From NCBI GenBank assembly GCA_015233115.1, contig JADFYJ010000010.1, positions 5,083 to 69,082 on the forward strand: a stretch of 64,000 nucleotides of DNA. The letters run 5' to 3'. A program made the translations under genes and the position numbers. Numbering within the stretch: position 1 is the stretch's first letter; every line of letters starts with the position of its first letter. Source of the stretch: Candidatus Omnitrophota bacterium. GTDB lineage: Bacteria; Omnitrophota; Gorgyraeia; Zapsychrales; Zapsychraceae. Below the pieces are notes generated by a model. It was not told the origin of the DNA. It ran no database searches and worked only from the letters and a program-made list of their open reading frames with translations. Below are positions 7,844 through 59,691 of the stretch, piece by piece.

Positions 7844-9034
7844 TTAGGGTTCAACCACAATTTTTCCCCGCATATCTTCATGCCCTTCGCCGCAAAATAT
7901 ATCGCAAAAAAACTCAAAAGTGCCAATTTTTTGAGGTGTTATATGCACAGCAGCAGCCTTCCCAGGCCTAATTTCCGCGTGAATACCCAACTCAGGGCAA
8001 TTAAAACCATGAACCACATCTTTGGTCGTTAATTCCAAAGATACAGGAACACCTTTTTTTAACACGATTTTATTGGGATTATATTCAAATTTCTTGGCTG
8101 TAATTTGAATCACCTTCTCTGGCGAATCCACATCAGCCATTGCCATTTTCATGACTCCTTCCACAGAATATTCCATAATGACAAATTCCCCGGAAGCTTT
8201 AACCGTTATACTACGAAAACCTAAACCGTTATATGGTGATGCCGGATCCCACGACACTGGCGCTTTTTTCTCCACAGAACCGGGCGCGGGCAAAGGATAC
8301 ATTAATCCCTTGGCCGCATGAAACGTGATATCCCCTTCTGTATGTTCATTAAGCTGATGAATATGGCCATAAAATACTTGCACATTTTTAAACGGCTTAA
8401 GCATCTCTAAAGCCTTTGCCCCGTCTTTGGTCCACCAGTCCCATTGAGGATACAAATCAAAAAGAGGCCGGTGCGTTAAAACCACAATCCTGGCATCTGG
8501 AGGAAGTTTAGCCACTTCCATCTTCATCCACTGTAACTGCTCATCTCCTAAAGTAGACTTTGGGTCTGAAACATTATCGAGCGCGATAAAATATATTCCT
8601 TTATGCTCAAACACATAATGAGTTTCCCCAAAAACCTCTTTATACGCCTGTCCGTTATCCAATGCTGCGTCATGCTCTCCGGGTAAAAATTTTAAATCTT
8701 TAATTTGCAGGCCGCTCACGATATCCCGGAATCCCATAAGCCGCTTACGCCGTTCTTTGGCATCGCTGGTGGTGTGAGTCAAATCTCCGGTAAAAACAAT
8801 AAAATCCGGCTGCGGATTCATGGCATTGACAGCGGTAATCGCTTTTTTCAAAGTGAGGGAAGCATCCGGGTTAATTTTTGGATCATTAAATCCCCAATGA
8901 GTGTCGGAAAGCTGAACAAATGTGAAATCTTCCATTTTTGTCACGGTGTCTGCCGCATGAACAAAATGGCAAAAAAATAATCCATATGCTAAAACTAAAA
9001 AACCTAAAATTTTTCTAAAACGAATCCCTATCAT
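7844..9034 (-). CDS. Secreted calcineurin-like metallophosphoesterase fused to a C-terminal CuA-type cupredoxin domain.
   Basis: N-terminal signal peptide (MIGIRFRKILGFLVLAYGLFFCHFVHA). The phosphoesterase motifs GDLTH and GHIH are present. The C-terminus carries H...CDIFCGEGHEDM, i.e. H-x(n)-C-x3-C-x3-H-x2-M, the binuclear CuA ligand pattern of COX subunit II and NosZ. Strong RBS (AGGAGG) before the ATG at 9034. Confidence 0.7.
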   Translation of the reverse strand: MIGIRFRKILGFLVLAYGLFFCHFVHAADTVTKMEDFTFVQLSDTHWGFNDPKINPDASLTLKKAITAVNAMNPQPDFIVFTGDLTHTTSDAKERRKRLMGFRDIVSGLQIKDLKFLPGEHDAALDNGQAYKEVFGETHYVFEHKGIYFIALDNVSDPKSTLGDEQLQWMKMEVAKLPPDARIVVLTHRPLFDLYPQWDWWTKDGAKALEMLKPFKNVQVFYGHIHQLNEHTEGDITFHAAKGLMYPLPAPGSVEKKAPVSWDPASPYNGLGFRSITVKASGEFVIMEYSVEGVMKMAMADVDSPEKVIQITAKKFEYNPNKIVLKKGVPVSLELTTKDVVHGFNCPELGIHAEIRPGKAAAVHITPQKIGTFEFFCDIFCGEGHEDMRGKIVVEP

Positions 9035-9103
9035 TTTTTCCTCCTTTTTCTTTCTTGCTATAGTCTAAAAGAAAGAACGATTTTGTAAATTCTCAGAATC
9101 CGC

Positions 9104-9124: not shown

Positions 9125-9131
9125 TAAATAT

Positions 9132-9152
9132 GGACCACCGACGCGGTGGTCC
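9132..9152. terminator. Perfect 9-bp inverted repeat (GGACCACCG-acg-CGGTGGTCC) directly 3' of the yihY stop. Possible terminator or attenuator hairpin.
   Basis: Palindrome read from the sequence. No clear U-tract follows, so intrinsic-terminator status is uncertain. Confidence 0.35.
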
Positions 9153-9157
9153 AAAGG

Positions 9158-10569: not shown

Positions 10570-11439
10570 TTAAATATTTACGTTAAACACATTCCGGATC
10601 ACCACGCCGATTACAAAAGTGATAGCCGCGATACTCAGGCTCAAGACCGCCATTTCGGTAAATCTTTTTTTGAAATTTAATTTTTGCGCGACCGAGATGT
10701 AAAAAGTAAAAGACCCAATTTCCAGTAAAGCAACGCTCAACGCGATCGCCAAACAAACAAAAACATTTTTTAATAAAAAATACGGTAAGACCAGAACAAT
10801 AACTGTTCCCAAATAAGAAACACCCGTATACCAACAAGCTTTAATAGGATCCTTATCCGTTTCCTCACCTTTCGTCGACAAATATTCTGACGCCGCCATG
10901 GACATGGCCGCAGCGATCCCCGTGATCAAGCCCACGATCCCAATCAATTTGGTATTATTCAAGGCCAGAGTAAAACCCGCCAAGGTCGCGGTCAATTCTA
11001 CTAAAGCATCATTTAAACCTAAAATCATGGAGCTGACATACTTAAACCGATCCTCATCGATCAGATCGAGCAAAGCACTTTCATGCGCTTTTTCGTCACC
11101 TATAATCATTTTAACCTCTGGGGTCTCATCTTTAAGCGGGGAATAGAAATCTTGAGCCGATAATTCCCCCCGCTCCATAAGCCGCAAACTAAAATTCAAT
11201 CCGCATATTCTCGCCATCAGCACATAATAAAATATTTTCCATTGATCAGGCTGAACATCTTCACCGGATATTTTTTTAAAAATTTCGTAATGCTTGAATT
11301 CCTCATTGGATATTCTTTGTAAAATACCTGATTGTCCTTCCTTCTTTACAATTTCTGAAAGTTTTTGATAAACATGATATTCTGTCAGCTCATTTTTTTG
11401 AGCTATTAAAATTTTTTTTCTTGATTCAGAATTTAGCAT
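10570..11439 (-). CDS. Ferritin-like (rubrerythrin/erythrin) domain fused to a VIT1/CCC1-family iron/manganese transporter.
   Basis: The N-terminal roughly 140 aa carry EExxH-type ferritin-like pairs (ELTEYHVYQ, EEFKHYEIF). The C-terminal half has the VIT1 TM helices and conserved acidic residues. Confidence 0.7.
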   Translation of the reverse strand: MLNSESRKKILIAQKNELTEYHVYQKLSEIVKKEGQSGILQRISNEEFKHYEIFKKISGEDVQPDQWKIFYYVLMARICGLNFSLRLMERGELSAQDFYSPLKDETPEVKMIIGDEKAHESALLDLIDEDRFKYVSSMILGLNDALVELTATLAGFTLALNNTKLIGIVGLITGIAAAMSMAASEYLSTKGEETDKDPIKACWYTGVSYLGTVIVLVLPYFLLKNVFVCLAIALSVALLEIGSFTFYISVAQKLNFKKRFTEMAVLSLSIAAITFVIGVVIRNVFNVNI

Positions 11440-23037: not shown

Positions 23038-26000
23038 TTACGGGGTTGTAACATTTAATGTTACCCACGCTGATGTACTCACTGTATTAGTTGCTTGTAT
23101 CCGATAATAATAGGTAGTGCCTCGGCTCAAACCTAAATTCAAATAGGATCTAGCTGTAGAAGCAACCACATACTTAGTCACATTTTGAGTAAAGGCAGAA
23201 TCTGTCGCCCTTTGGATCGAGAATCCTGTCAAAGGTGTTCCGGTTTCCTGCCAAGAAAGCAAAACTTGCGCCATAATCGTTCCGAACAGTGACGCAGATC
23301 CCGCAAAACTCGTCGGGGCTGCTAAAATGGCAGCCGACGGCGTGACGCTATTCGTTGCTGCTGATGCCGCGCTGGTTCCGATGGCGTTCGTTGCGGTTAC
23401 GGTAAACGTATACGCTGTGCCATTCGTTAATCCTGTCACCACTATCGGCGCCGCATTCGTTGTTCCAACTCCGACTATACCTCCGGGGTTAGACGTCGCG
23501 GTATATCCTGTGATCACACTCCCGCCATTCGATGCTGGAGCTGTGAAACTTACAGTTGCTTGCGCGTTTCCTGCCACTGCACTTGCTGCGGTCGGTGCGC
23601 CTGGGACTGTTGCTGGAGCCAATGGTGTTACACTATTCGTCGGTGCTGATGCCGCGCTGGTTCCAATGGCGTTCGTTGCGGTTACGGTAAACGTATACGC
23701 TGTGCCATTCGTTAATCCTGTCACCACTATCGGCGCCGCATTCGTTGTTCCAACTCCGACTATACCTCCGGGGTTAGACGTCGCGGTATATCCTGTGATC
23801 ACACTCCCGCCATTCGATGCTGGAGCTGTGAAACTTACAGTTGCTTGCGCGTTTCCTGCCACTGCACTTGCCGCAGTTGGTGCGCCTGGGACTGTAACAA
23901 CAACTGGAACAAACGTAAACCTAAAAGCATCCGCGACAACAATTCCATTGGTGGTTCCTGTTGTCCGGATCCGTACAAAACCAGTTTGCCCTGCGGCAAA
24001 CGTATATGTCCCAATGGGGAACCACTGACTGCCATTCAGTCGCTCATTCACATTGACTGTGCTGATCCCGGTTGTTGAAGAAACATCAACAGGAACAGCG
24101 GTGGCCTGATTAGCTCGGGCAGGATACCACATTTCTACTTTATATTGTCCTGCCGTCGGAAGATTAGGCTTAAACGTGAACGTCTTGGTCCCTTTCCCTG
24201 TATTATTATCCGTCCGGTAATTGGTTGCCCAATATCCGGCATTCGTGGTTGCCGTGGTCCATGTTCCAACAATAGCTATTGCTGGTACAGGGTCAGCATT
24301 GTCCACAATAATCGGCGGCTGTGTCGGAATCACAGTATTTGACGGGATTGAAGGCAACCCTGTCCCCACAGCGTTAGTCGCTGTGACTGTAAACGTATAC
24401 GCCGTACCATTCGTTAAACCTGAAACGACAATCGGACTTGATGCTCCAAGAGCTATTATGCTTCCAGGATTAGACGTCACGGTATATCCTGTAATCGGAC
24501 TGCCGCCAGTTCCTATCGGCGGATTAAAGCTTACTGTGGCCTGAGCATTGCCAGCTACTGCTGTCACTGCCATTGGTTCAGGCGGAACAGTTTGGAATAT
24601 GACCGGACGCATCATATCCATCTCTTCATGACCGAGCAAGTGACAATGCCAGACGTATTCATTTCCGAAATTGGTCATCTGATTAACCACCGTAATCGGT
24701 CCGCCAGTGAGAGGATCAAAACTACTAAATGTCGTTCCTAACGGCATCGTCGGATCCAAAGGCCGGATACTGTCTGGCACAGCGAATGGAACATTCTTTT
24801 GCGAAATCGGTCTTAACGCCACAATCGCATCTTCCAATGGATTCATCCTCACTGTATCCTTCCATCCCAGCTCATTAGGTTCTGGCGGCTTAACAACTCC
24901 AGCCCAGTCAACCCGGTTAATCAGCTGAACATTGAATAAGTGAAAATGAATCGCATGTGTATCTACCCCATTATGGGTGACTTTCCAAATTTGGGTTTCA
25001 CCATCTTTAATAATTTCCGTCGCCGGAGCGATATACCCTAGAGGAACAGTCGTTTGAGTATTGGAATTTGTAAACGGCAATTCAACACCCAAAATAGAAT
25101 TCATCCGACCATAATCAAGTTCAAAAAGCTCTTGTATGGCCTTGGGCTTCATCGGCATGGTGATCGGTGCTGTCGCCCCAATAGGAGTGTAAGTTAATGA
25201 CGTGTCTTGTATCTTTGAATATACATTTGGTAGAGTCTTTCCATACGCTGGACCATAAGCAGCTTGCGGCACTAAAGGCGCAGGCTGAGACGCCACAAAT
25301 GCGGCCGGTAATGCTGACTGCAAAGCGGCTAAATTAAATGCCGGATCTGCTGTCGGACTAGATACCTGGAATTGCATAATGGTACGGGTATTAGGACCAT
25401 AACCAGGCAACGTCGTTGGCGCACCGCCGATAGCCGTTTGATCCAGATCGCCGGTATAATAATCTAAGCGGGGATCGCCTGCCGGAACCGGCGCAGGAGA
25501 ATCATTATAGAGAATAATTTTTGAACCGTCCGGAACTTGCGAAAAGTCAATGATGACATCAGCCCGTTCAGCCGGCCCTAAAAACAAATTATGTTCTTTA
25601 ACATTCAAAACCGTAATACTTCTTTTATCCAAATCGTAACCAATGGGGATATTAGGAAGTACAACCGGCGCTGGCAAAAATCCGCCTTCTGTACCGATCT
25701 GAATCATGGATGGACCAACCATCGTCGGGTCTGGCCATCCGCCATTTCTGCCATCTGGTGTCGGCCATCCTGTCGGCCAAACGCCAGGGATAGCTGGAAC
25801 TGTTTTAATTTCCGTCGGATTTGCCGGATCAACATAATACAATTGCAAATTAAGGAAGCGGTCATTACAAGCATTTAAAATACGAAACCGGTATGCTTTG
25901 CGAGCAACCTTTACATAAGGATAAGCTGTCCCATTCACCAACGGCGTATCCATAAATGCTTCCATAACCATGGATGTATCCGGTGTACCAGGCTTTTGAA

Positions 26001-27228
26001 ATCCAGTTACAGGGTCTACAACCGGACCATGAACCAGACCAGCTGCTGTCGTGACTGGCGGCCAAAACCAGGGGCCATAATCCCAACGGCCAAACGCATT
26101 AACACCTAATGGGTCATTAGGATTCTGATTCGGCATATACACATGAGGAAACCATAAATCGCCCGTCATAGGCATCCCTGGCATAGATCCGGAATTCCAA
26201 GTAGGATCTGTGGCCGCGATCTTAGTTGCATCCACAAAAGTTTTATCCTGAATAATCAAAGGAATACCATAATGATAAACACCGCCTAAATCCGGAAGAA
26301 CTTTTTGTGTGCTGATCAAATTCTCTTCAGTCGGATCTGATAACACATAACCTGCGGCCTCACCTGCATAAACATTCAAGCGCGTAATACCAAAGGCGTG
26401 ATCATGATAAAACATGAGGCGTGCGCTTTGTTGATTCGTATAAAAAAACGTTTGCGAACCATCGCCTGGATCAGGCATGTCCGGGACATTGGTCACACTG
26501 ACACCTTTAGGGTAGGAAGTAATTTCTCCAGCTGGAGTGATCCATTGGTGCGGAGTGCCGTCGCTAATCCAAGGAGTGTTGCCCCCATGAAGATGCAAGG
26601 TAGCCCGGTTTTGAGTATAACTTTCTTTCATGCCCGGCATGCCTGGCATATCCGTCGGCCCCATCCCTGCTCCCATCACAGTTGTATCAACCGGGATAAA
26701 TAAATTACCGCCTGCGCCGGTCGGAAGTAAATTTGTAAACTTCACGCGCGTCGGACGGTTCATCTGGGCAATAATAACCGGCCCCAAATAATGCGGTTGC
26801 GGCCACGCTGTGATCTTCCCAGTAAGCGGATCACGAGTCGCCGGGTTAGCCGGATCATTCAATTGGACATAACCTCGCATCTTGGTTCCAGATTTGGGCA
26901 AATCAGAATGCATCTGTTCATTATATTCGACCAACCCAATTTCATAATAATCAGATCCGGGATAAGTTACCGTATCTGCTACAGCGACAGGAATAAACTG
27001 TCCCAGATTATTCGCGTTAGACGCTCCTAACCCAGGCAAAGAATCCACAAACTTTCTTAATAGCGGACTATTCGTCCAATTGGGAACATTAAAATAATCC
27101 GGAGCTGCTCCAGGAGTAGCCATAGGCATAGTTTGCGCTGAAACGTTAGGTGCAGTATATCCTCCCAAAACCATCATAAGCGTCAAAGCCAAGCTGGTTA
27201 ATTTTCGGGTCAAAGTATTCTTATTCAT
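23038..27228 (-). CDS. Giant secreted multicopper oxidase (three-cupredoxin laccase/CotA type) with several C-terminal fibronectin type III repeats and a beta-sandwich (carbohydrate-binding-like) domain. The likely start is MNKNTL at 27228, with an AAGGAGG RBS.
   Basis: All four MCO copper-ligand motifs are present: HLHGG, HDH, HAIHFH and WHCHLLGHEEMDMM. Sec signal peptide. Three FN3-like units share the motif AVAGNAQATVSF...SNGGS.ITGYT...VTGLTNGTAYTFTVTATN. The track ORF extends to 27318, but the in-frame ATG with an RBS is at 27228. Confidence 0.8.
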   Translation of the reverse strand: MNKNTLTRKLTSLALTLMMVLGGYTAPNVSAQTMPMATPGAAPDYFNVPNWTNSPLLRKFVDSLPGLGASNANNLGQFIPVAVADTVTYPGSDYYEIGLVEYNEQMHSDLPKSGTKMRGYVQLNDPANPATRDPLTGKITAWPQPHYLGPVIIAQMNRPTRVKFTNLLPTGAGGNLFIPVDTTVMGAGMGPTDMPGMPGMKESYTQNRATLHLHGGNTPWISDGTPHQWITPAGEITSYPKGVSVTNVPDMPDPGDGSQTFFYTNQQSARLMFYHDHAFGITRLNVYAGEAAGYVLSDPTEENLISTQKVLPDLGGVYHYGIPLIIQDKTFVDATKIAATDPTWNSGSMPGMPMTGDLWFPHVYMPNQNPNDPLGVNAFGRWDYGPWFWPPVTTAAGLVHGPVVDPVTGFQKPGTPDTSMVMEAFMDTPLVNGTAYPYVKVARKAYRFRILNACNDRFLNLQLYYVDPANPTEIKTVPAIPGVWPTGWPTPDGRNGGWPDPTMVGPSMIQIGTEGGFLPAPVVLPNIPIGYDLDKRSITVLNVKEHNLFLGPAERADVIIDFSQVPDGSKIILYNDSPAPVPAGDPRLDYYTGDLDQTAIGGAPTTLPGYGPNTRTIMQFQVSSPTADPAFNLAALQSALPAAFVASQPAPLVPQAAYGPAYGKTLPNVYSKIQDTSLTYTPIGATAPITMPMKPKAIQELFELDYGRMNSILGVELPFTNSNTQTTVPLGYIAPATEIIKDGETQIWKVTHNGVDTHAIHFHLFNVQLINRVDWAGVVKPPEPNELGWKDTVRMNPLEDAIVALRPISQKNVPFAVPDSIRPLDPTMPLGTTFSSFDPLTGGPITVVNQMTNFGNEYVWHCHLLGHEEMDMMRPVIFQTVPPEPMAVTAVAGNAQATVSFNPPIGTGGSPITGYTVTSNPGSIIALGASSPIVVSGLTNGTAYTFTVTATNAVGTGLPSIPSNTVIPTQPPIIVDNADPVPAIAIVGTWTTATTNAGYWATNYRTDNNTGKGTKTFTFKPNLPTAGQYKVEMWYPARANQATAVPVDVSSTTGISTVNVNERLNGSQWFPIGTYTFAAGQTGFVRIRTTGTTNGIVVADAFRFTFVPVVVTVPGAPTAASAVAGNAQATVSFTAPASNGGSVITGYTATSNPGGIVGVGTTNAAPIVVTGLTNGTAYTFTVTATNAIGTSAASAPTNSVTPLAPATVPGAPTAASAVAGNAQATVSFTAPASNGGSVITGYTATSNPGGIVGVGTTNAAPIVVTGLTNGTAYTFTVTATNAIGTSAASAATNSVTPSAAILAAPTSFAGSASLFGTIMAQVLLSWQETGTPLTGFSIQRATDSAFTQNVTKYVVASTARSYLNLGLSRGTTYYYRIQATNTVSTSAWVTLNVTTP
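23331..23880. repeat. Near-identical tandem duplication of about 288 bp (two copies) inside the MCO gene, each encoding one FN3 repeat. A third, diverged copy lies at about 24330-24600.
   Basis: The two DNA copies, starting about 23331 and about 23620, are identical over more than 250 nt apart from a few substitutions. Confidence 0.85.
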
Positions 27229-27526
27229 TTTTACCTCCTTCACCCATTCCGCAGGCAGCACCAGAAACTGTGGTTGTTTCAACCGGCCCGTCGTTGGTTG
27301 TGCTAAGAGTTGCCGCATTTTGTTGCTCAGATCGACGAGCTGCCGCTGCTTCTCTTTGCTCTGTGGTCACGCGTTTCATTCGGCGTTGCATGATGGCTTG
27401 TGCATCATGACTTTTCAACGGCGGCTGAGGCGTTTGTTCCTGCGCCCGAACCTGAGCAACGCCTGCCCAAAGAGCAGTAGCACTCAGAAGCACACTTCCC
27501 ATGATAATAAGTTTATTCTTGTTCAT
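27221..27526 (-). CDS. Small (101 aa) secreted protein of unknown function encoded immediately upstream of the MCO gene, overlapping its start by 8 nt.
   Basis: AAGGAGG RBS 5 nt before the ATG at 27526. Signal peptide MNKNKLIIMGSVLLSATALWAGVAQVRA, a Q/R/A-rich middle and a C-terminal ...SGAACGMGEGG. Confidence 0.45.
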   Translation of the reverse strand: MNKNKLIIMGSVLLSATALWAGVAQVRAQEQTPQPPLKSHDAQAIMQRRMKRVTTEQREAAAARRSEQQNAATLSTTNDGPVETTTVSGAACGMGEGGKNE

Positions 27527-32216: not shown

Positions 32217-32843
32217 CTATTGTTTCCCCAGGTTGTCCGAAGCAAAATTCCAATTGATTAATTTATCCAAAACAGCCGTCACATAATCTCCCCGTAAATT
32301 TTGATAGTCCAGGTAATACGCGTGTTCCCACACATCAATGGTTAATAGCGGCTTCATGCCCTTGACCAGCGGCAAATCCGCATTACTGGTTTTAACCACC
32401 TTAATTTTTCCTCCATCCACGACCAGCCATGCCCAACCGCTGCCGAACTGAGTTGTTGCCGCAGTCGCCAACTCTTTTTTGCAAGCTTCTAATGTACCGA
32501 AAGATTCTTCGATTTTTTGATGTAATGCGGAAGATGGTTTTCCTCCGCCCTTTGGGCTCAAACTCTTCCAATAAAACGCATGATTCCAGGCCTGCGCGGC
32601 ATTATTAAAAATCGGAGCCTTATCAATTTTACCGGCAGTTTCAGTTATAATTTTTTCTAGCGGCATATCTGAAAATTCTGCTCCCGCCACAAGTTTATTT
32701 AAATTATCGACGTAGGCTTTATGATGTTTACCATAGTGAAAACTCATTGTTTTTGCTGAAATAATCGGCTCTAACGCATTTTCCGGGTAAGGCAAAGCCG
32801 GCAAAACATGCAAATATTTATTTTCTGCGTTTTTATCATTCAT
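32217..32843 (-). CDS. Fe/Mn-family superoxide dismutase.
   Basis: Metal-ligand motifs [24 protein letters not shown] and [13 protein letters not shown]. Confidence 0.9.
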
Positions 32844-32945: not shown

Positions 32946-35900
32946 TCATTGACTATTTTCCGCTATCATTCGAACCTCTACTCGGTGATCTTGATGATCA
33001 TCAATAAGTTCGATCATTTTATTCTCTTGTAGATGGCCATCTACTAAGACCCCAGCCAGACCGCTTCCCAGCAGGATCTGTGAAACTTCAATGTGATACA
33101 ACGTATCTCGATAACGGTAATGTATTTTGAATGTTTTCCATTCCGGAGGAAGACAGGGTTCTATTGATAATTGATTCACATTTAATCTTAAGCCCAAAAG
33201 AAACTCCAGGAGTAATCGGTACATCCAGCCCGCTGACCCGGTATACCAGGTCCAACCGCCGCGGCCCACATGAGGAGCAACCGCGTAAACATCTGCCGCA
33301 ACCACGTAAGGCTCCACTTTATATATATTAATTTCTTCCAAAGATTTTCCGTGATTGACGGGATTGATCATATCCAGAAGTTCCCAAGCCATACGGCTAT
33401 CCCCAAGCCGGGCAAAAGCCATAGCCGCCCAAATGGCCGCATGAGTATATTGCCCGCCATTTTCCCTCACACCTGGAACATAGCCCTTGATATAGCCCGG
33501 GTTCATTCCAGATTTATCGAATGGCGGATCAAGCAGTTGAATAATCTGTGTATCCCGGTGGACCAAACGCTGATTAAGAGACGTCATGGCCTTCCGGCCG
33601 CGGTCAGGATCAGCTGCCCCAGAAAGAACAGACCAGCTTTGCGCGATAGAATCAATCTGGCATTCAGAATTACCTGCTGACCCCAGAAGGGCCCCATCAT
33701 CAAAATACGCGCGTCTGTACCATTCTCCGTCCCACCCGTTTTTCTCAATATTTTGCTTTAGTTGAATCAATTGAGCGCGGCAAATTTCCACAAAAGCACT
33801 ATCATCGCGCAGCTGGGCCATTTTAATAAATTGCGTCAACACATCATAAAGAAAAAATCCTAACCAAACACTTTCCCCCTTACCCTGCTGTCCGACACAA
33901 TTCATTCCGTCATTCCAGTCACAGGAACCCATGAGGGGTAATCCATGTTGCCCGATACTCAAACTTTTAATAATAGCCCGCTGGCAATGCTCATACAAAC
34001 TCACTTTTTCAGATGACTGTTTGGGCAAATCGTAATACGAATCTTCCTCTACGGTAACCATCCGACCGCGCAAAAAAGGAACCAACTCATCTAAGACACC
34101 CGTATCCCCTATGCTCAGGACATAATGGCACGTAGCGTATACTAACCAAAGATAATCATCTGAACAATGGGTGCGAACGCCTCTTCCCGAGGGAGGATGC
34201 CACCAGTGTTGGACATCACCTTCGAGGAATTGATGGGACGCGCACAAAAGTAAATGTTCGCGCATGAGGCGCGGTTCGCAATGGTTCAAAGCCATTACAT
34301 CCTGTAACTGATCTCGGAAACCAAACGCCCCGCCGGATTGATAATAACCGCTGCGCCCCCAGAGACGGCAGGCCAAAGTTTGATAAATCAACCAGCCGTT
34401 GGCCAGGACATTGAGCGATGAATCAGGTGTCTCTACCTGCACAGCACCAATCGTATGTGTCCAGTACTTATTCACAGCGTCTAAAGCTTCCTGCGCCCCC
34501 GATGACCCGCAAAAATTCCGCACCAGATTTTTGACCTGCTCAACATTGTGACCCGCTCCCAGAGTAAAAACAATTTCACGTTCTTCTCCATCCGCTAACT
34601 CAAACGGAACCTGAATCGCGGCGCAGGGATCTAAGGCCGAACCCGTTCGTCCAGAAAGATGAGCCCGTAATAACGCGTCCGGCTTATGAATTGATCCATT
34701 GCGCCCTAAAAATTCCGCTCGATCCGCGCATATGGTCCGGCCCATATCATTGGTCGAAAAAAACGCGATGATGTCAGAAAACTCCGAATTGTAAAAATTT
34801 CGGGCATAAATCGCTCCGTTTATAGGATCCACTTCCGTATGGACATGCATGACGGTCTTGGATCTCAAATCTCCCAGCACCCATTCCACATAACCTGTGG
34901 CAGAAAGCCGGCGAGGCCGTCCAGAAATATTCCGTATTTTAAGAACCGAAAATTTGACCGGTGACTCTAGCGCCACATAAACCCATAACTCTGAATGAAG
35001 CCCTCCTTCATCATGCTCAAAAACACTATAACCAAATCCGTGACGAATCAGATACGGGTGCCGGGAATGCACTGGTTGAGGCGCCGGAGACCAAACCTGC
35101 CCAGTTTCTTCATCCCGTAAATAAAAAGCCTCTCCCGTTAAATCGTTCACCGGATCATTATTCCAGGGACTCAAACGAAATTCATGAGCATTCTCGCTCC
35201 ACGTATAGGCCAATCCATTCTCGGAAATAATGGTGCCGAAATGCGCGTTCGCTAACACATTGACCCATGGGGCTGGAGTCACTTGATCTGATGAAAGACA
35301 AATGACATACTCTCGTCCATCCGGAGTAAACCCTCCTAATCCATTGAACAAAATTAAATCATGCCGCGTTTCACCCAAAGATGGGGCGATTGCCGGACGG
35401 AACGTTTTAACAGGAATAAACTGCTCAACAGGAAATTCACTAAAATTATGGCGATAAATTTGATTGGCCAATGTTCCCCTGCGGTCTGAAATAATGGCCC
35501 GAGCAACAGACTGAAACAAAATACGTTCTTCGTCGGATATTTGTTCAGCGGGCCGCACGAATATCTCGCCGGAATTATGCGCAATTTGAGACTGAACAGT
35601 CGCGCTAATCAATCCCATAATTTGTTCCTGTAATAACTGCCGATAACCCGAAAGAGCTTCATTCCAGATCACCAAATCAACAGCGAGCCCTTTTAACCGC
35701 CAATACGCGTGAGCCTGCACCATCTGCCTGACTATTTCAACATTGGCCAAATCTCCAATTTGCAAAATCACCATGGGCAGGTCACCAGAAATGGCCGATC
35801 CCCACAACCCGCTTTGACCACGGCGATTTTGAATAAGCACAGCAGGGTCCGCCCGGAGTGATGCATGGGCATAAATAATAAAACCCGCCAGATGCCCAAA

Positions 35901-38900
35901 AAGCTGGGCATCGGTTTCTGTCGCGTTGATCTGCCGCAAAACCACCTGACTGTGAGTCCAGGACAATTCAAAAACGCGGTCCGCGATACGCCAATCATGA
36001 TATTTTTCAATCAAACTTAAAGCTTTATCGCGCGTTTCACCCATGCCGTAAACCATATTAATAATAACGGTCTGTTCCGGTTCAAGGGACATCTGACCAC
36101 GGATCACTGTCACTGGATCCAGCACGGAGCCCTGGCTCCCGGAAAGATCATGAGACTGAGTCATTGCGTAAGGTTCAGCCAGATTATAACCGCGTCCGAT
36201 AAACTGCATACGGTCAGTTTCATAGGATACCTTTTGAATTTCAGCGTCATGCACGGACATTAAATGAAACATCCATGGCTCCTGTTCAGTAACAGACCTG
36301 GGACGACGAGAACACAAGATAGCCTGCTTTGATTTGATAATTTCAGTCTGCACAAAAAGATTACTAAACATTGGATGTAAGGCATCGGCCATATCCGGAG
36401 CCAGCACCACTTCTGAATAACTGGTCACCTCAATCACCCTCCTGCCCCGGGAACGATTGGTGATCCGCACTCGCCGCAGTTCTATATCATCTTCCGGTGA
36501 AACCACAATTTCCACATGAGTCTCCAATCCATAATCCCGCCGACGGAATTCGGCGCGTCCTTGTGAAAAAATAACTTCATAATTTTCCGGCTGTTTATGC
36601 GTGGGTTGATAGGCCGTCGACCAGAATTTTCCGCTTGCTATGTCGCGAATATAACAAAACACGCCCCAATTATCGCAAGTGGTGTCTTCCCGCCAACGGG
36701 TTACAGCCATATCCTTCCAGCGGCTGTAGCCTCCGCCCGCATTTGTTACCATGACATGATACCGGCCATTAGACAATAACTGTACTTCCGGAACCTGTGT
36801 ATGGGGACTTTTAAGTATGCGAACTGGCGACTGGGTTTCAGCGGCCAGCGCGCGAATATTGGAAAGTTCATTGACGTGAATATAAAATGGGATACTCTTA
36901 GGAATTCTCTCTTGAAGCAATAACATGTTAGCCTGAAAAAGCGGATCAGCTCTGAATCGTTTTTGCATAGGATGATCTAATAATACATATGCTAGAGCAA
37001 GTAAGCTCATCCCTTGATGGTGAGCCAAAAATGACCGGAGTATCGTACTCGACCTACCCCTCACCCGGCGTGATGGTGTATAATCAACCGCTTCATATAG
37101 ACCATACTGGCCCATCATCCCTTCACACGCTAGACGCTGTAAATTGAGACAAGCCGGTTCAGGCGTCACCATCAACGCCAGCAATGAAGCATAAGGCGCT
37201 ATAACCAAGTCTTCTGTTAATCCGCGCTTAAATCCTAATCCAGGAACACCAAACGCGCGATACTGGTAATTGAGATTCGCATCAATGGCATTATACCCAG
37301 ATTCCGAAATACCCCAAGCGACCCCAAACTGTTTTCCGTATTCAATTTGTCTTCCTACCGCGGCTTGATAAGTCTGTCCCAGCAGAGTATTTTCATACGT
37401 TGGCATGACCACCAACGGCATCAAGTATTCAAACATCGAACCGCTCCACGACAAAAGAGTTGGTTTTCCGCCGGAGGTAGTTAACAAACGTCCCAGGGCA
37501 AACCAGCTTTCCGAAGGCACTTGTCCCTGAGCGATCGCGGTAAAATAACATAATCTCGCTTCTGACGCCAAAAGATCATAAAATCCTGAATCTAATTTAC
37601 GTTCTTCCGAATAGTATCCTATAGATAACAATTTCCGTTTTACATCATAAAGAAAATCGTACTCCATCTGAGCAAAATCACCGGCTTGCCTAACTAAACG
37701 TTCAATATCGCTGATTCGTTTCAAAGCACGAGTACTTATCTCGCCTTCAACTTTTGTCAGCTCCCTAAGTGTTGGTATGCCCGTAATACCCGAATAATTT
37801 TTCGGAACCAAAAAGATTAAATCATCGAGTATATGCCGACATTGCTGAACCAGCTTTTGGGTCCACTCGATTGCTTCGGCCTCTGCGGATAGAGAAATTT
37901 TTGTATGAAATTCTTCGGCGTGCTGACCGAACGCTTCAAGCCACAATCGTACCTGCTCGAGTGTAGCCGGTTTAAATTCGTCAGCCGACTCTAAATCTTT
38001 TTCCAATTGATGAGTTGAAAACAAATTCATATCACCTATTGAATCCACCAAAACCAAAAACGTATCTTTCAAACTTTCCAGCCATCGCTCTCCTAAAATT
38101 TTGTCATCGCATAGAGCCAATAGTCCGGGCCGTAATGTCAAAAGAAAACCCGCCAGGTTGCCGCTGTCAACTGTTGAGATGTAGTTAGGAAGAAGCGGCT
38201 GCAAAGATTGTGTATCATACCAATTAAAAAAATGTCCGCGAAAACGTTTTAGCCCTGCCATGGAACGAAACGTATTTTCAGTTCGTTCCAGTAGCCTCTG
38301 CGCTGTCATGATACCAAAATCATACGCTGACAAATTAGCTAAAAGAGCCAGGCCGATATTGGTGGGTGAGGTGCGGTGTGAAATTTTAATCATCCGGGTT
38401 TCCTGGTAGTTATCAGGAGGAAGCCAGTGGTCTTCCTGCCCGACAAAGGTCTCAAAAAAATCCCAAATTTTCCGGGAAAGTTTTCGCAGAAAAAATAGTT
38501 GATTAGCGCTTAGTTTTACTTCCCTGCGGGGCATAAGCCGGCTGAGCCACCAGACACAAGCCGGTGATACCGCCCACAACAATAAAACAGGTCCGGCGAA
38601 CATCAAAGTGTGTGGCGCTGATCCGGCCAAATAAATAAACACCGAAACTGCTGTCACAGGAGCAATCCACATTAAAAGGAACGACCGAATCAAATCATTG
38701 CTGTCCCCATCCGTATCCGCATACAAATTCCATTCCAGAAACCGTTTATGAGTAATCAGCATCCGCACGACCGTACGCACGATCGCATCCAAAGTAAAAA
38801 AAGCTTCATAAGGAAGACATGCAACAGTAAAAGCCCTTTGAGCCAAACGCCCAGCCGCGGCCCGGAAGACTGTTTTTAAATGCTGTTTCCAGAAAACATC

Positions 38901-41543
38901 TTTCGACTTGTGTAATGCGTCTAAAAAGGAAATAAGCAGAGGAGGAAAAAATATCATTTCAAATACGACACACGTCCAATGCCAAGGCGAAGGAATAATC
39001 GTCCAACTCATCAGCAAAAGGGCTATTAACGCAAATGGCACTAGACTACGCCTTAAATTATCAAAAATTTTCCATTGCGACAAAAATGATAAAGTATTTT
39101 TCTGCTTGTGCCCGTCAGATGACGGAACTTTGGACCACAACCAGCCTAATAATTGCCAATCTCCGCGGATCCAACGGTGCCGACGCCTAACATCTGTACT
39201 GTAACGGAAAAGATTTTCCTCGTACAATTCGACGTTACTCAACAGTCCGGAACGGGCATAACATCCTTCCCAAAGGTCATGGCTCAAAATCTTACCTTCA
39301 GGAAACCGTCCTTTGCACGCCCTTTCAAAAATATCCAAATCATAAATCCCTTTGCCGATAAATGAACCTTCCCCAAACAGATCCTGGTAAACATCCGAAA
39401 CCGTACGGGTATAAGGATCTATCCCCGGCTCACCTGCGTATAACCTCGCGTAAAAGGACCGATTCGCTCCTGCCAGGCTGGTACTCACCCGCGGCTGAAG
39501 TATTCCGTAGCCTTCGCAGACACATTGTTTCTGCTCGTCATAACGGGCGCGGTTTAAAGGGTGCGCCATGGTTTCTACCAGCTGACGAGCACAATCACGG
39601 GGTAATTGCGTATCTGTATCCAAGGTAATGATATATTTAACATTTTTCAATACCGCCAAATCACCTACGATGAGTAAAAATTTTTCCTGGGAGCCTCCGC
39701 GCAGCAGGCCATTTAAATCCGCTAATTTCCCGCGTTTACGTTCATATCCCATCCAAATGCCTTCACAAGGATTCCAGCTCCGTGGCCGGTGGAACAGAAA
39801 AAAAATATCAGGCCTGCCTTTTTTATATTTACTGTTAAGCTCTACAATTTTTTCCTGGGTTAATCGTAGAAGCGCATCGTCATCAGGCATAGTTTCTTGA
39901 GGCGCGTCCTGAAAGTCAGTTAATAATCCAAAATGTAATTGTTCATCCTGATTAGCCAAAAACCTCACTTCCAAGGCTTCGATAAGCCGCTCTATGTTCT
40001 GTGAACTTGTGAGCATGGTGGGCACAACTATTAAGGTAAGAAATTCCGACGGAATTCCTTTCGAAAAATCCATACGCGGCAATACCTGCGGCTTGACCAT
40101 TGACATGGCCATGTAGTTGACTAGCTCTAAGGCCAATTGACTCATGGCGACAATTAAAAAAACGCCAAAAGCCGCAGCTTTCCATGCCATAACATTCATG
40201 CCATAGAGATGGATCCAAAGGACACCCATCCCCCAAAATGTTAACACGGCAACAGCCCCGAGATACAGCAACAAGGCAAATCGTTGCGCTAATTTATATG
40301 CTTTTTCTATGATTGAAAACTGGTTCCGTACAGCTTGTTCAAGTTGTGACAATCCTTTATCGATTAAATAAAAACCGACGTGAGCGGTCCGGTCACTGAC
40401 TCCGTTTTTCCCAGCCGCTTCACTTGCTAATTGAACCGCTTTTTGCGCCACCTCACTTTCAAAAATTCCGCTCCTTTTCGCTATGTTCTCAACCACATGA
40501 CGGTAGCGGTCACGAGTAGCAAAATCCATCTGAGCATAAAATCCGGCAGGATCTTTGAGTAAAAACTTTTCGACAATACTCATTGTCTCCACAAATTCAC
40601 GCCAATCCATCGCCGACAACAAACGAAGACTTCCGATGCTATTACTGATAGACACCTGATTAGCCGCTTGTTGTTGATTTTCTAAATTAACCAAATGCTC
40701 AATGGTTAATCCCGACTCTGCCAGCCACTGATTAATCCAGGTCAACGGTAAGGCCAAGGATGGACTATGCCCCTGTAAACGGCGGGTCAGCTCAGCCACA
40801 AAAGAGCTCGACATGGGGGGGGTTGACCGTGCCATGTCCGCGACGATTAAAACTAAAGTTTTAGGTTCTCTCGCGGCAACTTCCGCCATTTGATCCGCCC
40901 AAAAATCAGCCAAATTTTGATCCATTCTTCCCACCGTGATACGAGCAGCCACCCGCCGTAGATTTTCAATCAAGGCCAGCCGCAGCATAATAGGAATGGC
41001 CCACAACTCGCCCAAATTTAACAGGGTGACTTGCTGATAAGCCTTTATAAAATTATTCAAAATTTCCAGATCTATCCGTCCATCACCATGAGCAACCATT
41101 TCTAAAGCAATGTCATACACCCTCGGCAGGCCCTGCGAAGGACCATTCATTAATAGAGGCAATTCCCGATGATAACTTTTGGGTAAATGCCGCTTAGCCG
41201 TACGAACCTGCTCTTCGATCAAATAAAAATTATCCAGCAGCCATTCACCTGCCGGCGTACCTAAACGCTTGGCCTTAACCGCCTCAGTCAGCAAGGCATG
41301 AGTTTCCCCCAGTACCATTTCGTTTTCTGTCAGCCTGGTCAAAAGCAATAGTGAAGAACGTTCCGTCGTTAATTTATGCAACCTGGCCAGCGTTTTGCCA
41401 TATTGTTTCATCTGTTCACTGCTGAACAATTCTGAGCGCAGGGGAGGCTCTTCGCGCATATGTTTGGGGAGCAAAATTTTACCGCGCAAACGCCTTAATA
41501 AATGAGAAAAAAATATTTTGATATCTGTTAATCTTATTTTCAT
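32946..41543 (-). CDS. cgs: Cyclic beta-1,2-glucan synthase (Cgs/NdvB/ChvB-like), 2865 aa: N-terminal polytopic membrane region, GT84-type glycosyltransferase domain, second TM region, and a C-terminal GH94-like (alpha/alpha)6 glucan-phosphorylase domain.
   Basis: The length is almost identical to Brucella/Agrobacterium Cgs/ChvB (about 2830-2870 aa). Domain order is TM, then GT with DxD, then TM, then a six-hairpin glycosidase/phosphorylase. This very large single ORF has no repeats. Its start is 4 nt past the stop of the downstream radical SAM gene. Confidence 0.8.
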   Translation of the reverse strand: MKIRLTDIKIFFSHLLRRLRGKILLPKHMREEPPLRSELFSSEQMKQYGKTLARLHKLTTERSSLLLLTRLTENEMVLGETHALLTEAVKAKRLGTPAGEWLLDNFYLIEEQVRTAKRHLPKSYHRELPLLMNGPSQGLPRVYDIALEMVAHGDGRIDLEILNNFIKAYQQVTLLNLGELWAIPIMLRLALIENLRRVAARITVGRMDQNLADFWADQMAEVAAREPKTLVLIVADMARSTPPMSSSFVAELTRRLQGHSPSLALPLTWINQWLAESGLTIEHLVNLENQQQAANQVSISNSIGSLRLLSAMDWREFVETMSIVEKFLLKDPAGFYAQMDFATRDRYRHVVENIAKRSGIFESEVAQKAVQLASEAAGKNGVSDRTAHVGFYLIDKGLSQLEQAVRNQFSIIEKAYKLAQRFALLLYLGAVAVLTFWGMGVLWIHLYGMNVMAWKAAAFGVFLIVAMSQLALELVNYMAMSMVKPQVLPRMDFSKGIPSEFLTLIVVPTMLTSSQNIERLIEALEVRFLANQDEQLHFGLLTDFQDAPQETMPDDDALLRLTQEKIVELNSKYKKGRPDIFFLFHRPRSWNPCEGIWMGYERKRGKLADLNGLLRGGSQEKFLLIVGDLAVLKNVKYIITLDTDTQLPRDCARQLVETMAHPLNRARYDEQKQCVCEGYGILQPRVSTSLAGANRSFYARLYAGEPGIDPYTRTVSDVYQDLFGEGSFIGKGIYDLDIFERACKGRFPEGKILSHDLWEGCYARSGLLSNVELYEENLFRYSTDVRRRHRWIRGDWQLLGWLWSKVPSSDGHKQKNTLSFLSQWKIFDNLRRSLVPFALIALLLMSWTIIPSPWHWTCVVFEMIFFPPLLISFLDALHKSKDVFWKQHLKTVFRAAAGRLAQRAFTVACLPYEAFFTLDAIVRTVVRMLITHKRFLEWNLYADTDGDSNDLIRSFLLMWIAPVTAVSVFIYLAGSAPHTLMFAGPVLLLWAVSPACVWWLSRLMPRREVKLSANQLFFLRKLSRKIWDFFETFVGQEDHWLPPDNYQETRMIKISHRTSPTNIGLALLANLSAYDFGIMTAQRLLERTENTFRSMAGLKRFRGHFFNWYDTQSLQPLLPNYISTVDSGNLAGFLLTLRPGLLALCDDKILGERWLESLKDTFLVLVDSIGDMNLFSTHQLEKDLESADEFKPATLEQVRLWLEAFGQHAEEFHTKISLSAEAEAIEWTQKLVQQCRHILDDLIFLVPKNYSGITGIPTLRELTKVEGEISTRALKRISDIERLVRQAGDFAQMEYDFLYDVKRKLLSIGYYSEERKLDSGFYDLLASEARLCYFTAIAQGQVPSESWFALGRLLTTSGGKPTLLSWSGSMFEYLMPLVVMPTYENTLLGQTYQAAVGRQIEYGKQFGVAWGISESGYNAIDANLNYQYRAFGVPGLGFKRGLTEDLVIAPYASLLALMVTPEPACLNLQRLACEGMMGQYGLYEAVDYTPSRRVRGRSSTILRSFLAHHQGMSLLALAYVLLDHPMQKRFRADPLFQANMLLLQERIPKSIPFYIHVNELSNIRALAAETQSPVRILKSPHTQVPEVQLLSNGRYHVMVTNAGGGYSRWKDMAVTRWREDTTCDNWGVFCYIRDIASGKFWSTAYQPTHKQPENYEVIFSQGRAEFRRRDYGLETHVEIVVSPEDDIELRRVRITNRSRGRRVIEVTSYSEVVLAPDMADALHPMFSNLFVQTEIIKSKQAILCSRRPRSVTEQEPWMFHLMSVHDAEIQKVSYETDRMQFIGRGYNLAEPYAMTQSHDLSGSQGSVLDPVTVIRGQMSLEPEQTVIINMVYGMGETRDKALSLIEKYHDWRIADRVFELSWTHSQVVLRQINATETDAQLFGHLAGFIIYAHASLRADPAVLIQNRRGQSGLWGSAISGDLPMVILQIGDLANVEIVRQMVQAHAYWRLKGLAVDLVIWNEALSGYRQLLQEQIMGLISATVQSQIAHNSGEIFVRPAEQISDEERILFQSVARAIISDRRGTLANQIYRHNFSEFPVEQFIPVKTFRPAIAPSLGETRHDLILFNGLGGFTPDGREYVICLSSDQVTPAPWVNVLANAHFGTIISENGLAYTWSENAHEFRLSPWNNDPVNDLTGEAFYLRDEETGQVWSPAPQPVHSRHPYLIRHGFGYSVFEHDEGGLHSELWVYVALESPVKFSVLKIRNISGRPRRLSATGYVEWVLGDLRSKTVMHVHTEVDPINGAIYARNFYNSEFSDIIAFFSTNDMGRTICADRAEFLGRNGSIHKPDALLRAHLSGRTGSALDPCAAIQVPFELADGEEREIVFTLGAGHNVEQVKNLVRNFCGSSGAQEALDAVNKYWTHTIGAVQVETPDSSLNVLANGWLIYQTLACRLWGRSGYYQSGGAFGFRDQLQDVMALNHCEPRLMREHLLLCASHQFLEGDVQHWWHPPSGRGVRTHCSDDYLWLVYATCHYVLSIGDTGVLDELVPFLRGRMVTVEEDSYYDLPKQSSEKVSLYEHCQRAIIKSLSIGQHGLPLMGSCDWNDGMNCVGQQGKGESVWLGFFLYDVLTQFIKMAQLRDDSAFVEICRAQLIQLKQNIEKNGWDGEWYRRAYFDDGALLGSAGNSECQIDSIAQSWSVLSGAADPDRGRKAMTSLNQRLVHRDTQIIQLLDPPFDKSGMNPGYIKGYVPGVRENGGQYTHAAIWAAMAFARLGDSRMAWELLDMINPVNHGKSLEEINIYKVEPYVVAADVYAVAPHVGRGGWTWYTGSAGWMYRLLLEFLLGLRLNVNQLSIEPCLPPEWKTFKIHYRYRDTLYHIEVSQILLGSGLAGVLVDGHLQENKMIELIDDHQDHRVEVRMIAENSQ

Positions 41544-55744: not shown

Positions 55745-56194
55745 TTAAGCCGCCGACGCGGTGATTAACTCTATTACTATTTCAACAACCTTTGGAACCA
55801 TCACCGCGACTTCGGGGGTTAGGTCCAATGACCACTCAATTCGATAAGGTTCAATTCCGATTACTGTAACCGGCAACTCTGTCGTTCGACCGGTCAAAGC
55901 TAATACGTGTTGCAAATTAAACCCATGCAAAGAACCCATAAACTCTTTCTCTGCACACTCATCGAGAGAAAAAGAATATATAGTGCCAGGCTTAGCTCCC
56001 CCTTTACAAGCATCTATGACAATCATTTGGTCTGCCTCTTCAATCTGCGGCAACACATCAAGGACCGCCGTGCCTGCATCCACAATGCAGACATTTTCGT
56101 CCTGGAGGAGTTCTGCGAGGACATGCGCCGCATGAACACCAACCCCTTCATCAGCTAATAAAAGATTACCTAAGCCCAGCACTAAAGTTTTCAC
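55745..56194 (-). CDS. [NiFe] hydrogenase maturation endopeptidase (HyaD/HybD/HoxM family).
   Basis: [18 protein letters not shown] motif and size. Confidence 0.85.
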
Positions 56195-56226
56195 TCTTTT
56201 CGCCTTTCAAAACTATTGCTTCAGGT

Positions 56227-57660: not shown

Positions 57661-57688
57661 TGTTTATCCTTTCCTATTAACATGACTG

Positions 57689-59671: not shown

Positions 59672-59691
59672 GTCTTCTCCTTTTTTAATGT

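Follow-up and report, generated by a model that had tools for sequence, protein, structure and literature searches.

An exported metallophosphoesterase fused to a CuA-type cupredoxin: a conserved protein family with a possible redox function

Metallophosphoesterases (MPEs) are regarded as hydrolases, and the binuclear copper centre CuA is, to our knowledge, found in very few enzyme types: the haem-copper oxidases, nitrous oxide (N2O) reductase and a CuA-type nitric oxide (NO) reductase. Here we report a gene that brings the two together. It lies in a 64,000-nucleotide stretch of contig JADFYJ010000010.1 from a Candidatus Omnitrophota bacterium, hereafter referred to as the window, and it encodes an exported MPE-fold domain followed by a CuA-type cupredoxin domain; we refer to this protein and its relatives as MPE-CuA. 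The MPE-CuA family is abundant, conserved, uncharacterised and mislabelled in automatic annotation. The wider MPE clade to which it belongs is paired near-obligately with four kinds of high-potential one-electron carrier. We tentatively suggest that the clade represents an undescribed redox class, in which the MPE fold would have been converted by the exchange of an asparagine ligand for glutamate and would be fed interchangeably by CuA, blue copper, Rieske or cytochrome c modules.

The two domains and their predicted metal sites

The initial annotation had described the gene product as an exported calcineurin-like phosphoesterase joined to a CuA-type cupredoxin, and domain searches bear this out. 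Three Pfam models match above their gathering scores: Metallophos (PF00149) at residues 38-227 (E 2.8e-11), Cupredoxin_1 (PF13473) at residues 303-394 (E 8.7e-16), and the periplasmic domain of COX2 (PF00116) at residues 277-394 (E 2.2e-10). The E-values obtained with Pfam and the Protein Data Bank (PDB), together with thousands of full-length homologues, rule out a chance motif or a mis-called open reading frame (ORF). A database entry with 100% identity to it bears the name 'cupredoxin domain-containing protein [Candidatus Omnitrophica bacterium]'. The N-terminus, MIGIRFRKILGFLVLAYGLFFCHFVHA followed by ADT, looks by eye like a Sec-type signal without a twin-arginine motif, which points to a periplasmic protein; cleavage would probably occur after VHA. 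A motif of the twin-arginine translocation (TAT) type, RRxFL, is present instead in 62 of the 105 close homologues on which all counts of invariance below are based. An AlphaFold2 model built from these homologues has a mean predicted local distance difference test score (pLDDT) of 91.6, and in relatives that carry the two halves as separate genes the MPE gene stops at the position of the linker between the domains. Foldseek, run with the model, found no PDB entry holding both halves.

Searched as a whole against the PDB, the protein matches best the CuA domain of Thermus thermophilus ba3 oxidase (2cua/2lln; phmmer E ~5e-15), to which residues 306-395 align with zero gaps. In this phmmer alignment, H342, C377, I379, C381, H385 and M388 all fall on CuA ligand positions; the matching ligands of ba3 subunit II are, by the numbering that we assume, H114, C149, Q151, C153, H157 and M160. 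The complete CuA ligand set claimed in the initial annotation is thus in register with a solved CuA domain at all six positions, and no Cys, His or Met ligand is misaligned. A type-1 or non-metal cupredoxin was rejected for the window protein, in which both Cys, both His and the Met match the solved CuA site. When the modelled cupredoxin is superposed on 2cua, the root-mean-square deviation is 0.9-1.4 Å over 89-93 residues, at 33-34% identity. At the level of sequence, the C-terminal domain is confirmed as a CuA-type cupredoxin with a complete predicted ligand set.

Fold, ligand pattern and spacing (His, 34 residues, then Cys-x-(carbonyl)-x-Cys-x3-His-x2-Met) are shared with T. thermophilus ba3 cytochrome c oxidase subunit II (COX II; 2CUA, 1EHK chain B). 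Unlike COX II, MPE-CuA has neither transmembrane helices nor a subunit I, and is fused or adjacent to a soluble dimetal domain. It also differs at the backbone-carbonyl position (I379 here, Gln in Thermus), which is Ile or Val in MPE-CuA, and in the replacement of the first His by Met in a large proteobacterial subclade. C377, C381, H385 and M388 are unchanged in 105/105 close homologues and the first His is kept in 103/105. Across a set of 80 species loci, to which the species-locus counts in this report refer, 48 have His and 29 have Met at the first CuA position. Met-type loci, with the ligand set Met/Cys/Cys/His/Met, include L007, L013, L014, L017 and L018, and the cupredoxin of the Ralstonia loci L091 and L092 reads ILMGFSIPDF; this set may form a tuned or non-classical binuclear copper site.

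Membership in the known CuA families was rejected on scores. The CoxB model (TIGR02866) gives 63.4 bits against a cut-off of 147.7 bits, and the NosZ models give 36-47 bits against cut-offs of 625-700 bits, the CuA domain alone matching in both cases. NosZ, including the lactonase-type clade III L-NosZ, likewise carries a C-terminal CuA on a periplasmic catalytic metallodomain and has Sec and TAT variants. MPE-CuA, in contrast, has no beta-propeller or CuZ domain, and its catalytic domain is an MPE.

The structures closest to the N-terminal domain, according to Foldseek, are GpdQ (3d03; E 3e-14, target-normalised TM-score 0.75) and then Rv0805, with purple acid phosphatases (PAPs) next in the ranking (E ~1e-10). 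Four canonical MPE motifs are present, namely D44-x-H46, G83-D84, H188 and G223-H-I-H226. The third motif of the fold, GNH[DE], reads GEHD here, a detail absent from the initial annotation, and the metal site departs in this respect from the PF00149 family definition. The substituted residue, Glu120, is Glu in 105/105 close homologues and, by a loose motif scan, in 77/80 species loci; aligned distant relatives mostly keep it, with Asp in two, Ala in one and the motif missing in P0233. Along with E120, the residues D44, H46, D84, H121, D122, H188, H224 and H226 are invariant in the 105 homologues, as are W198-x-W200 (WDW, 198-200) and Q227, and the MPE domain has a clade-specific W-x-W-x-T-x-D motif and GHIHQ. 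Position 87, which corresponds to the Tyr of PAPs (GDxxY), is His in 90/105, Gln in 15/105 and Tyr in 0/105. One relative, P0029 (402 aa), has an internal duplication of ~100 residues in its MPE domain and no cupredoxin, which is possibly an assembly artefact.

Following Rv0805 and GpdQ, we take metal 1 to be bound by D44, H46 and H226 and metal 2 by E120, H188 and H224, with D84 as the bridge; the Asn that Glu120 replaces is the second-metal ligand of canonical MPEs. The predicted site would then consist of four His, two Asp and one Glu: each metal would have two His and one carboxylate, and an Asp would bridge the pair. The O2- and NO-reducing site of flavodiiron proteins is described in the same terms (PMC12799149). 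This likeness of the predicted site is an analogy on an unrelated fold. Flavodiiron membership was rejected, as Pfam, NCBIfam and structure searches gave no match to a metallo-beta-lactamase fold or a flavodoxin, and the predicted ligand composition is all that is shared. The alpha-beta-beta-alpha sandwich is the hydrolase-type fold of both flavodiiron and MPE proteins, and both would combine a hydrolase-type dinuclear fold with variable electron-transfer modules; the flavodiiron fold is a metallo-beta-lactamase and not an MPE, which makes this analogy and not homology. Flavodiiron proteins are cytoplasmic and fed by flavin or rubredoxin, whereas MPE-CuA is predicted to be periplasmic and the partners in its clade are CuA, blue copper, Rieske or cytochrome. 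MPE-CuA may work like a flavodiiron protein or a rubrerythrin, while being homologous to neither.

The class III phosphodiesterases (Enterobacter aerogenes GpdQ and Rv0805/Icc/CpdA) are nearest in both sequence and structure, and share the DxH, GD, H and GHxH motifs. MPE-CuA is set apart from them by GEHD, Sec/TAT export, pairing with electron carriers, and the W-x-W-x-T-x-D and GHIHQ motifs; the CpdA/Icc model (NCBIfam PRK11148) was rejected at 45.5 bits against a 225-bit cut-off. The MPE fold is also shared with PAPs, whose oxidation-state-dependent dimetal centre is a plausible analogy. Unlike PAPs, MPE-CuA lacks the PAP N-terminal domain, and PAPs themselves lack a dedicated electron-transfer domain.

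Family distribution, electron carriers and regulators

At E<=1e-5, 7894 database proteins match the window protein, and the best 120 homologues are 52-65% identical to it, ~390 aa long and nearly all of the same architecture. In the one-genome-per-species collection the family has at least 544 loci, which span many phyla. The fusion, which the initial annotation called not a standard pairing and proposed to look for in other genomes, is indeed unusual relative to characterised proteins; in the sequence databases, with thousands of homologues, it is a large conserved family. Hosts known from metagenome-assembled genomes include Nitrospirota, Thermodesulfobacteriota, Sedimentisphaerales, Bacteroidales, Spirochaetia and Myxococcota; further host lineages are Omnitrophica, Smithella and Desulfovibrionaceae. 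Cultured hosts include Collimonas, Janthinobacterium, Rugamonas, Duganella, Paraburkholderia and Ralstonia. On the Ralstonia solanacearum megaplasmid the family is found in 137 records, under the annotation 'metallophosphoesterase | cytochrome c oxidase subunit II', and the JGI names 'CpdA' and 'Icc-related' on homologues are automatic labels. In ~24/80 species loci the protein is split into an MPE gene (~300 aa) followed, after 3-7 nt (31 nt in one locus), by a cupredoxin gene (~120 aa) with its own signal peptide. The occurrence of the two halves in both fused and split form is a classic signature of functional partners.

In 8 loci a monohaem cytochrome c gene directly adjoins the MPE-CuA gene on the same strand, and these cytochromes come from at least two unrelated families, one in Nitrospirota and one in Betaproteobacteria. 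When the MPE domain alone was searched against 1.8 billion representative proteins, the relatives at 28-40% identity were nearly all of the GEHD type, many with TAT signals, and several ended in other C-terminal redox modules. These include a Rieske [2Fe-2S] domain (Pfam E 1.2e-13; at least 24 clusters), a plastocyanin-type blue-copper domain (Pfam E 1.5e-8; at least 7 clusters) and possibly a haem domain, with a weak Pfam match. Given these numbers of clusters, the Rieske and blue-copper fusions are recurrent architectures and not assembly chimeras. At L083 (3719-4810 and 7329-8534), the blue-copper-fused MPE is accompanied by a dihaem cytochrome c peroxidase (CCP_MauG) gene upstream and a weakly matching 'Lactonase' beta-propeller gene downstream.

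Carriers also accompany the stand-alone MPE genes of the clade. For example, an acidobacterial stand-alone MPE gene has its stop codon overlapped by a dihaem Haem_bd/cytochrome c gene, and in a Chloroflexota operon a blue-copper cupredoxin gene lies just upstream of the MPE gene. A tally over 79 metagenome loci of the stand-alone clade found a downstream haem/cytochrome c gene in 32, an adjacent type-1 (blue-copper) cupredoxin gene in 31, a fused cupredoxin in 4, too little flanking sequence in 6, and no carrier in 6, of which 2 were threshold misses. A carrier is present in at least 69/73 of those with enough flank, a proportion that overstates the independent observations because the metagenome loci are mutually related. 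The dihaem protein that partners the stand-alone type has a cytochrome domain that shares 43% identity with the cytochrome encoded next to the CuA type.

A functional redox link between the MPE and CuA halves is supported by these arrangements, and we consider it quite probable that an exchange of electrons between carrier and dimetal site lies at the heart of the function. It could be argued instead that the cupredoxin has no redox role and that, with copper bound or with nothing bound, it acts in chaperoning, sensing, structure or oligomerisation on an ordinary exported phosphodiesterase. In favour of this, Cu(I) chaperones are found among the cupredoxin-fold proteins with Cys/Met sites, the window protein also matches CupA (2mry), though more weakly (E 7e-7), and the His-to-Met variants resemble Cu(I)-trafficking ligand sets. 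We nevertheless find such a role very improbable, since the window protein and its clade strictly keep the full CuA set, cytochrome c genes lie adjacent, and the modules swapped in by relatives, Rieske and cytochrome domains, are electron carriers and not Cu chaperones.

Genes for an extracytoplasmic function (ECF) sigma factor and a zf-HC2 anti-sigma factor adjoin the MPE-CuA gene in ~30/80 species loci. The same cassette stands beside Rieske-type, blue-copper-type and stand-alone MPE genes, and was found in 49/65 metagenome loci with enough flank. At another CuA-type locus, a sigma gene and a 211-aa gene without a Pfam match, probably encoding the anti-sigma factor, adjoin the MPE gene. The anti-sigma factors of a Chloroflexi MPE-Rieske locus and a gammaproteobacterial split MPE/CuA locus are 44% identical over their full length. 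The anti-sigma periplasmic domain, with the motif SSDxHTVKPWFxGKxDFxP...GGRLDY, matches no Pfam family; genes with this domain occur at L005 (6089-6883), L081 (4242-5015) and L084 (4469-5293). In the megaplasmid of R. solanacearum CFBP 8695 (L091, 3900-4900) the ECF sigma and anti-sigma genes, which lie upstream of the MPE and cupredoxin genes, look truncated or fused and are missing from the gene table, and in GMI1000 (L092) they are intact.

Judging by gene adjacency, in many lineages the gene is likely controlled by a dedicated ECF sigma/anti-sigma pair, and the presence of this cassette whichever carrier is used fits a stress-induced function. No match of the pair to a characterised system was found, and clustering of neighbours in the 80 species loci revealed nothing conserved beyond ECF sigma, anti-sigma and cytochrome c. 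A crude regular-expression scan of 8 usable intergenic regions, with imprecise start-codon calls, gave no match to an ECF-type promoter. Full-text literature searches found no paper on the MPE-CuA fusion or the sigma-MPE module, the main text of the ECF reclassification paper makes no mention of that module, and one literature match (eLife 2017) was set aside as it concerns unrelated YkuE-type MPEs.

The direction of electron flow could also be the reverse of that considered below. The dimetal site would then act as a dehydrogenase on a periplasmic reductant whose binding resembles that of a tetrahedral oxyanion or a metal ion (Fe(II), Mn(II), sulfite and phosphite are examples), and electrons would leave through CuA and cytochrome c for the respiratory chain. 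All of the partners are carriers of high potential, a kind that periplasmic dehydrogenases also use as acceptors, and MPE sites bind phosphate-like oxyanions. Moreover, a distant GEHD-type MPE (27% identity, 378 aa) on Sinorhizobium meliloti pSymA (L093, CP140958.1 996321-1007499) is flanked by a SCO copper chaperone gene and by genes for a flavoprotein, a c-type cytochrome, SoxZ and SoxY, which hints at a sulfur-oxidation context for that clade. We regard the dehydrogenase as improbable, however. Many host lineages (Omnitrophica, Smithella, Desulfovibrionaceae and Sedimentisphaerales) are, as we understand it, strict anaerobes in which no high-potential terminal acceptor would be evident; energy-metabolism genes show no conserved linkage, the distant S. 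meliloti case excepted; and ECF control suggests a stress response over catabolism.

A proposed redox enzyme and the hydrolytic alternative

With considerable reservation, we lean towards a periplasmic redox enzyme with an Fe-containing, flavodiiron-like dimetal centre that is fed by CuA and most likely reduces O2, NO or hydrogen peroxide (H2O2) as an envelope stress defence. In such an enzyme, the C-terminal cupredoxin would hold a binuclear CuA that swaps single electrons with a soluble periplasmic carrier, which would be a c-type cytochrome where one is encoded next door. Electrons would move from CuA to the dinuclear centre of the N-terminal phosphoesterase-fold domain, where a redox-active Fe (Fe-Fe or Fe-Mn) would be held and one of these small oxidants would be reduced. 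The role would be that of a flavodiiron protein or rubrerythrin, placed in the periplasm and supplied by high-potential one-electron carriers. Architecture, ligand conservation and near-obligate carrier pairing are observed; that Cu and Fe fill the sites, that electrons travel directly from one site to the other, in which direction they do so and on which substrate the enzyme acts are inferred.

Redox-active Fe and the reduction of a small oxidant are proposed because the predicted ligand set has the flavodiiron composition. Redox catalysis as such was chosen in view of the swappable modules, the chemical logic of the ligand swap and the ECF stress control. Redox enzymes such as NirK and NosZ typically have interchangeable one-electron modules, fused or adjacent; for hydrolases we know of none.

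The main competitor is a true periplasmic phospho(di)esterase that is activated by redox state in the manner of PAPs. Only one redox state of its Fe dimetal centre, such as Fe(III)-Fe(II), would be active, and that state would be kept or switched by CuA, type-1 copper, Rieske or cytochrome c with electrons from the respiratory chain. Apart from the Asn, every hydrolase motif is preserved, the His-Asp pair H121-D122 among them, and the nearest solved structures of the MPE half are all phosphodiesterases or phosphatases (GpdQ, Rv0805 and PAPs); together these two observations leave room for hydrolytic chemistry. The diiron couple of PAPs (~+300 mV or higher) fits the potentials of CuA, blue copper, high-potential Rieske and c-type cytochromes, and the carrier pairing is accommodated as well by redox activation as by redox catalysis.

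Four considerations make us rate the redox-activated phosphoesterase as somewhat unlikely. We know of no hydrolase with a dedicated, near-obligate electron-carrier partner across many phyla. The position of the PAP Tyr is occupied by His or Gln. The genomic context is one of ECF stress sigma factors, and no phosphate-scavenging genes were seen at the loci inspected. Finally, redox activation gives no account of the invariant Asn-to-Glu change. The description 'purple-acid-phosphatase-like' in the initial annotation consequently fails as a family assignment, there being no Tyr ligand at position 87 and a Glu in place of the Asn ligand, and survives as a mechanism, in that PAP-like redox activation is still a live rival.

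The intact hydrolase motifs and the phosphodiesterase-like structures weigh against the proposed O2-, NO- or H2O2-reducing enzyme, and so do several other observations. The first CuA His is Met in 29/77 species loci, mostly Burkholderiales, and the site may thus not be a classical CuA everywhere. The carrier count is inflated by the relatedness of the metagenome loci, as stated above. Stress-related neighbours are sporadic (CCP_MauG in L083; AhpC and ferritin in L087), and the 64-kb window contains no homologue of sigma, anti-sigma, cytochrome or Cu-assembly genes. In the AlphaFold2 model, the predicted TM-score (pTM) of 0.73 makes the arrangement of the two domains uncertain. The suggested substrates are drawn from two sources, the ligand analogy and the ECF link.

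If MPE-CuA is indeed a redox enzyme, both the CuA and the metallophosphoesterase fields would be extended. CuA would gain a new natural home beside cytochrome oxidase, N2O reductase and few others; the MPE superfamily would gain its first redox-catalytic member; and a second hydrolase scaffold, after that of the flavodiiron proteins, would have been turned to redox chemistry. A periplasmic system for handling O2, NO or peroxide would have been hidden under the labels 'cAMP phosphodiesterase', 'plastocyanin' and 'cytochrome c oxidase subunit II', and a conserved ECF sigma/anti-sigma pair would be assigned its target. The family is found in hundreds of species, among them soil Burkholderiales, the plant pathogen R. 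solanacearum and uncultured anaerobes, and its genes are carried by cultured, genetically tractable hosts (the Ralstonia GMI1000 megaplasmid, Collimonas and Janthinobacterium).

Gene surroundings in the window

The coordinates of the gene, its predicted domains and ligands, and the signals near it are listed in Table 1. A terminator-like hairpin and a weak promoter-like site upstream of the ORF suggest that the MPE-CuA gene is its own transcription unit; such promoter-like sites are no commoner than in shuffled sequence, and the one found here is only suggestive.

Table 1. Positions in the window of the MPE-CuA gene, its predicted parts and nearby signals
Feature	Position	Strand	Description and basis
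MPE-CuA fusion gene	7844..9034	(-)	Complete ORF, ATG start, 396 aa, exported; ORF list
Signal peptide, residues 1-27	8954..9034	(-)	Read from sequence; low-confidence N-terminal helix in model
MPE-fold domain, residues 38-290	8165..8923	(-)	PF00149; Foldseek; ligand residues invariant in 105 homologues
GEHD motif, residues 119-122 (Glu120 for canonical Asn ligand)	8669..8680	(-)	Translation; aligns with GNHD (N97) of Rv0805
Inter-domain linker, residues 291-305	8120..8164	(-)	Modelled as helix, pLDDT 69-76 vs >90 elsewhere
CuA-type cupredoxin domain, residues 306-396	7847..8119	(-)	PF13473, PF00116, gapless alignment, root-mean-square deviation
His342 (VHGF), predicted first CuA histidine ligand	8009..8011	(-)	Alignment and translation
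Predicted CuA ligand loop C377-D-I-F-C381-G-E-G-H385-E-D-M388, CDIFCGEGHEDM, residues 377-388	7871..7906	(-)	Translation
Promoter-like -35/-10 pair upstream of ORF	9062..9089	(-)	Weak consensus match
Terminator-like hairpin	9131..9153	(-)	10 bp stem, 7 G-C pairs; just after upstream yihY/brkB-family gene

The neighbouring genes encode a YihY/BrkB membrane protein, an erythrin-VIT1 protein, a LigB-type dioxygenase, an ABC-F ATPase and two-component regulators, and the neighbourhood is uninformative as to function. The erythrin-VIT1 gene (10570-11439, minus strand), two genes upstream of the MPE-CuA gene, joins a rubrerythrin/erythrin-like N-terminus (weak Pfam match, below gathering) to a VIT1 membrane domain and is of the MbfA-like iron exporter type.

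Further away, a [NiFe] hydrogenase cluster occupies 55745-62525 on the minus strand. It comprises the large subunit (56227-57660), a small subunit with a TAT signal and a C-terminal Big_6 Ig domain (57689-59671), a probable maturation protease (55745-56194), and two radical-SAM proteins, one of which is fused to HypC (61179-62525). Two giant ORFs at 23038-27318 and 32946-41543, both on the minus strand, encode 1426 aa and 2865 aa; the 1426-aa protein contains a Golvesin_C domain and fn3 repeats, and it weakly matches multicopper-oxidase and PAP-N models. At 43170-46784 (minus strand) a 1204-aa fusion combines a GT4 glycosyltransferase with type I phosphodiesterase/nucleotide pyrophosphatase and endonuclease/exonuclease/phosphatase domains. 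Across the window (1-64000) nearly all predicted genes lie on the minus strand and the GC skew is negative throughout. An Fe/Mn superoxide dismutase gene is located at 32217-32843.

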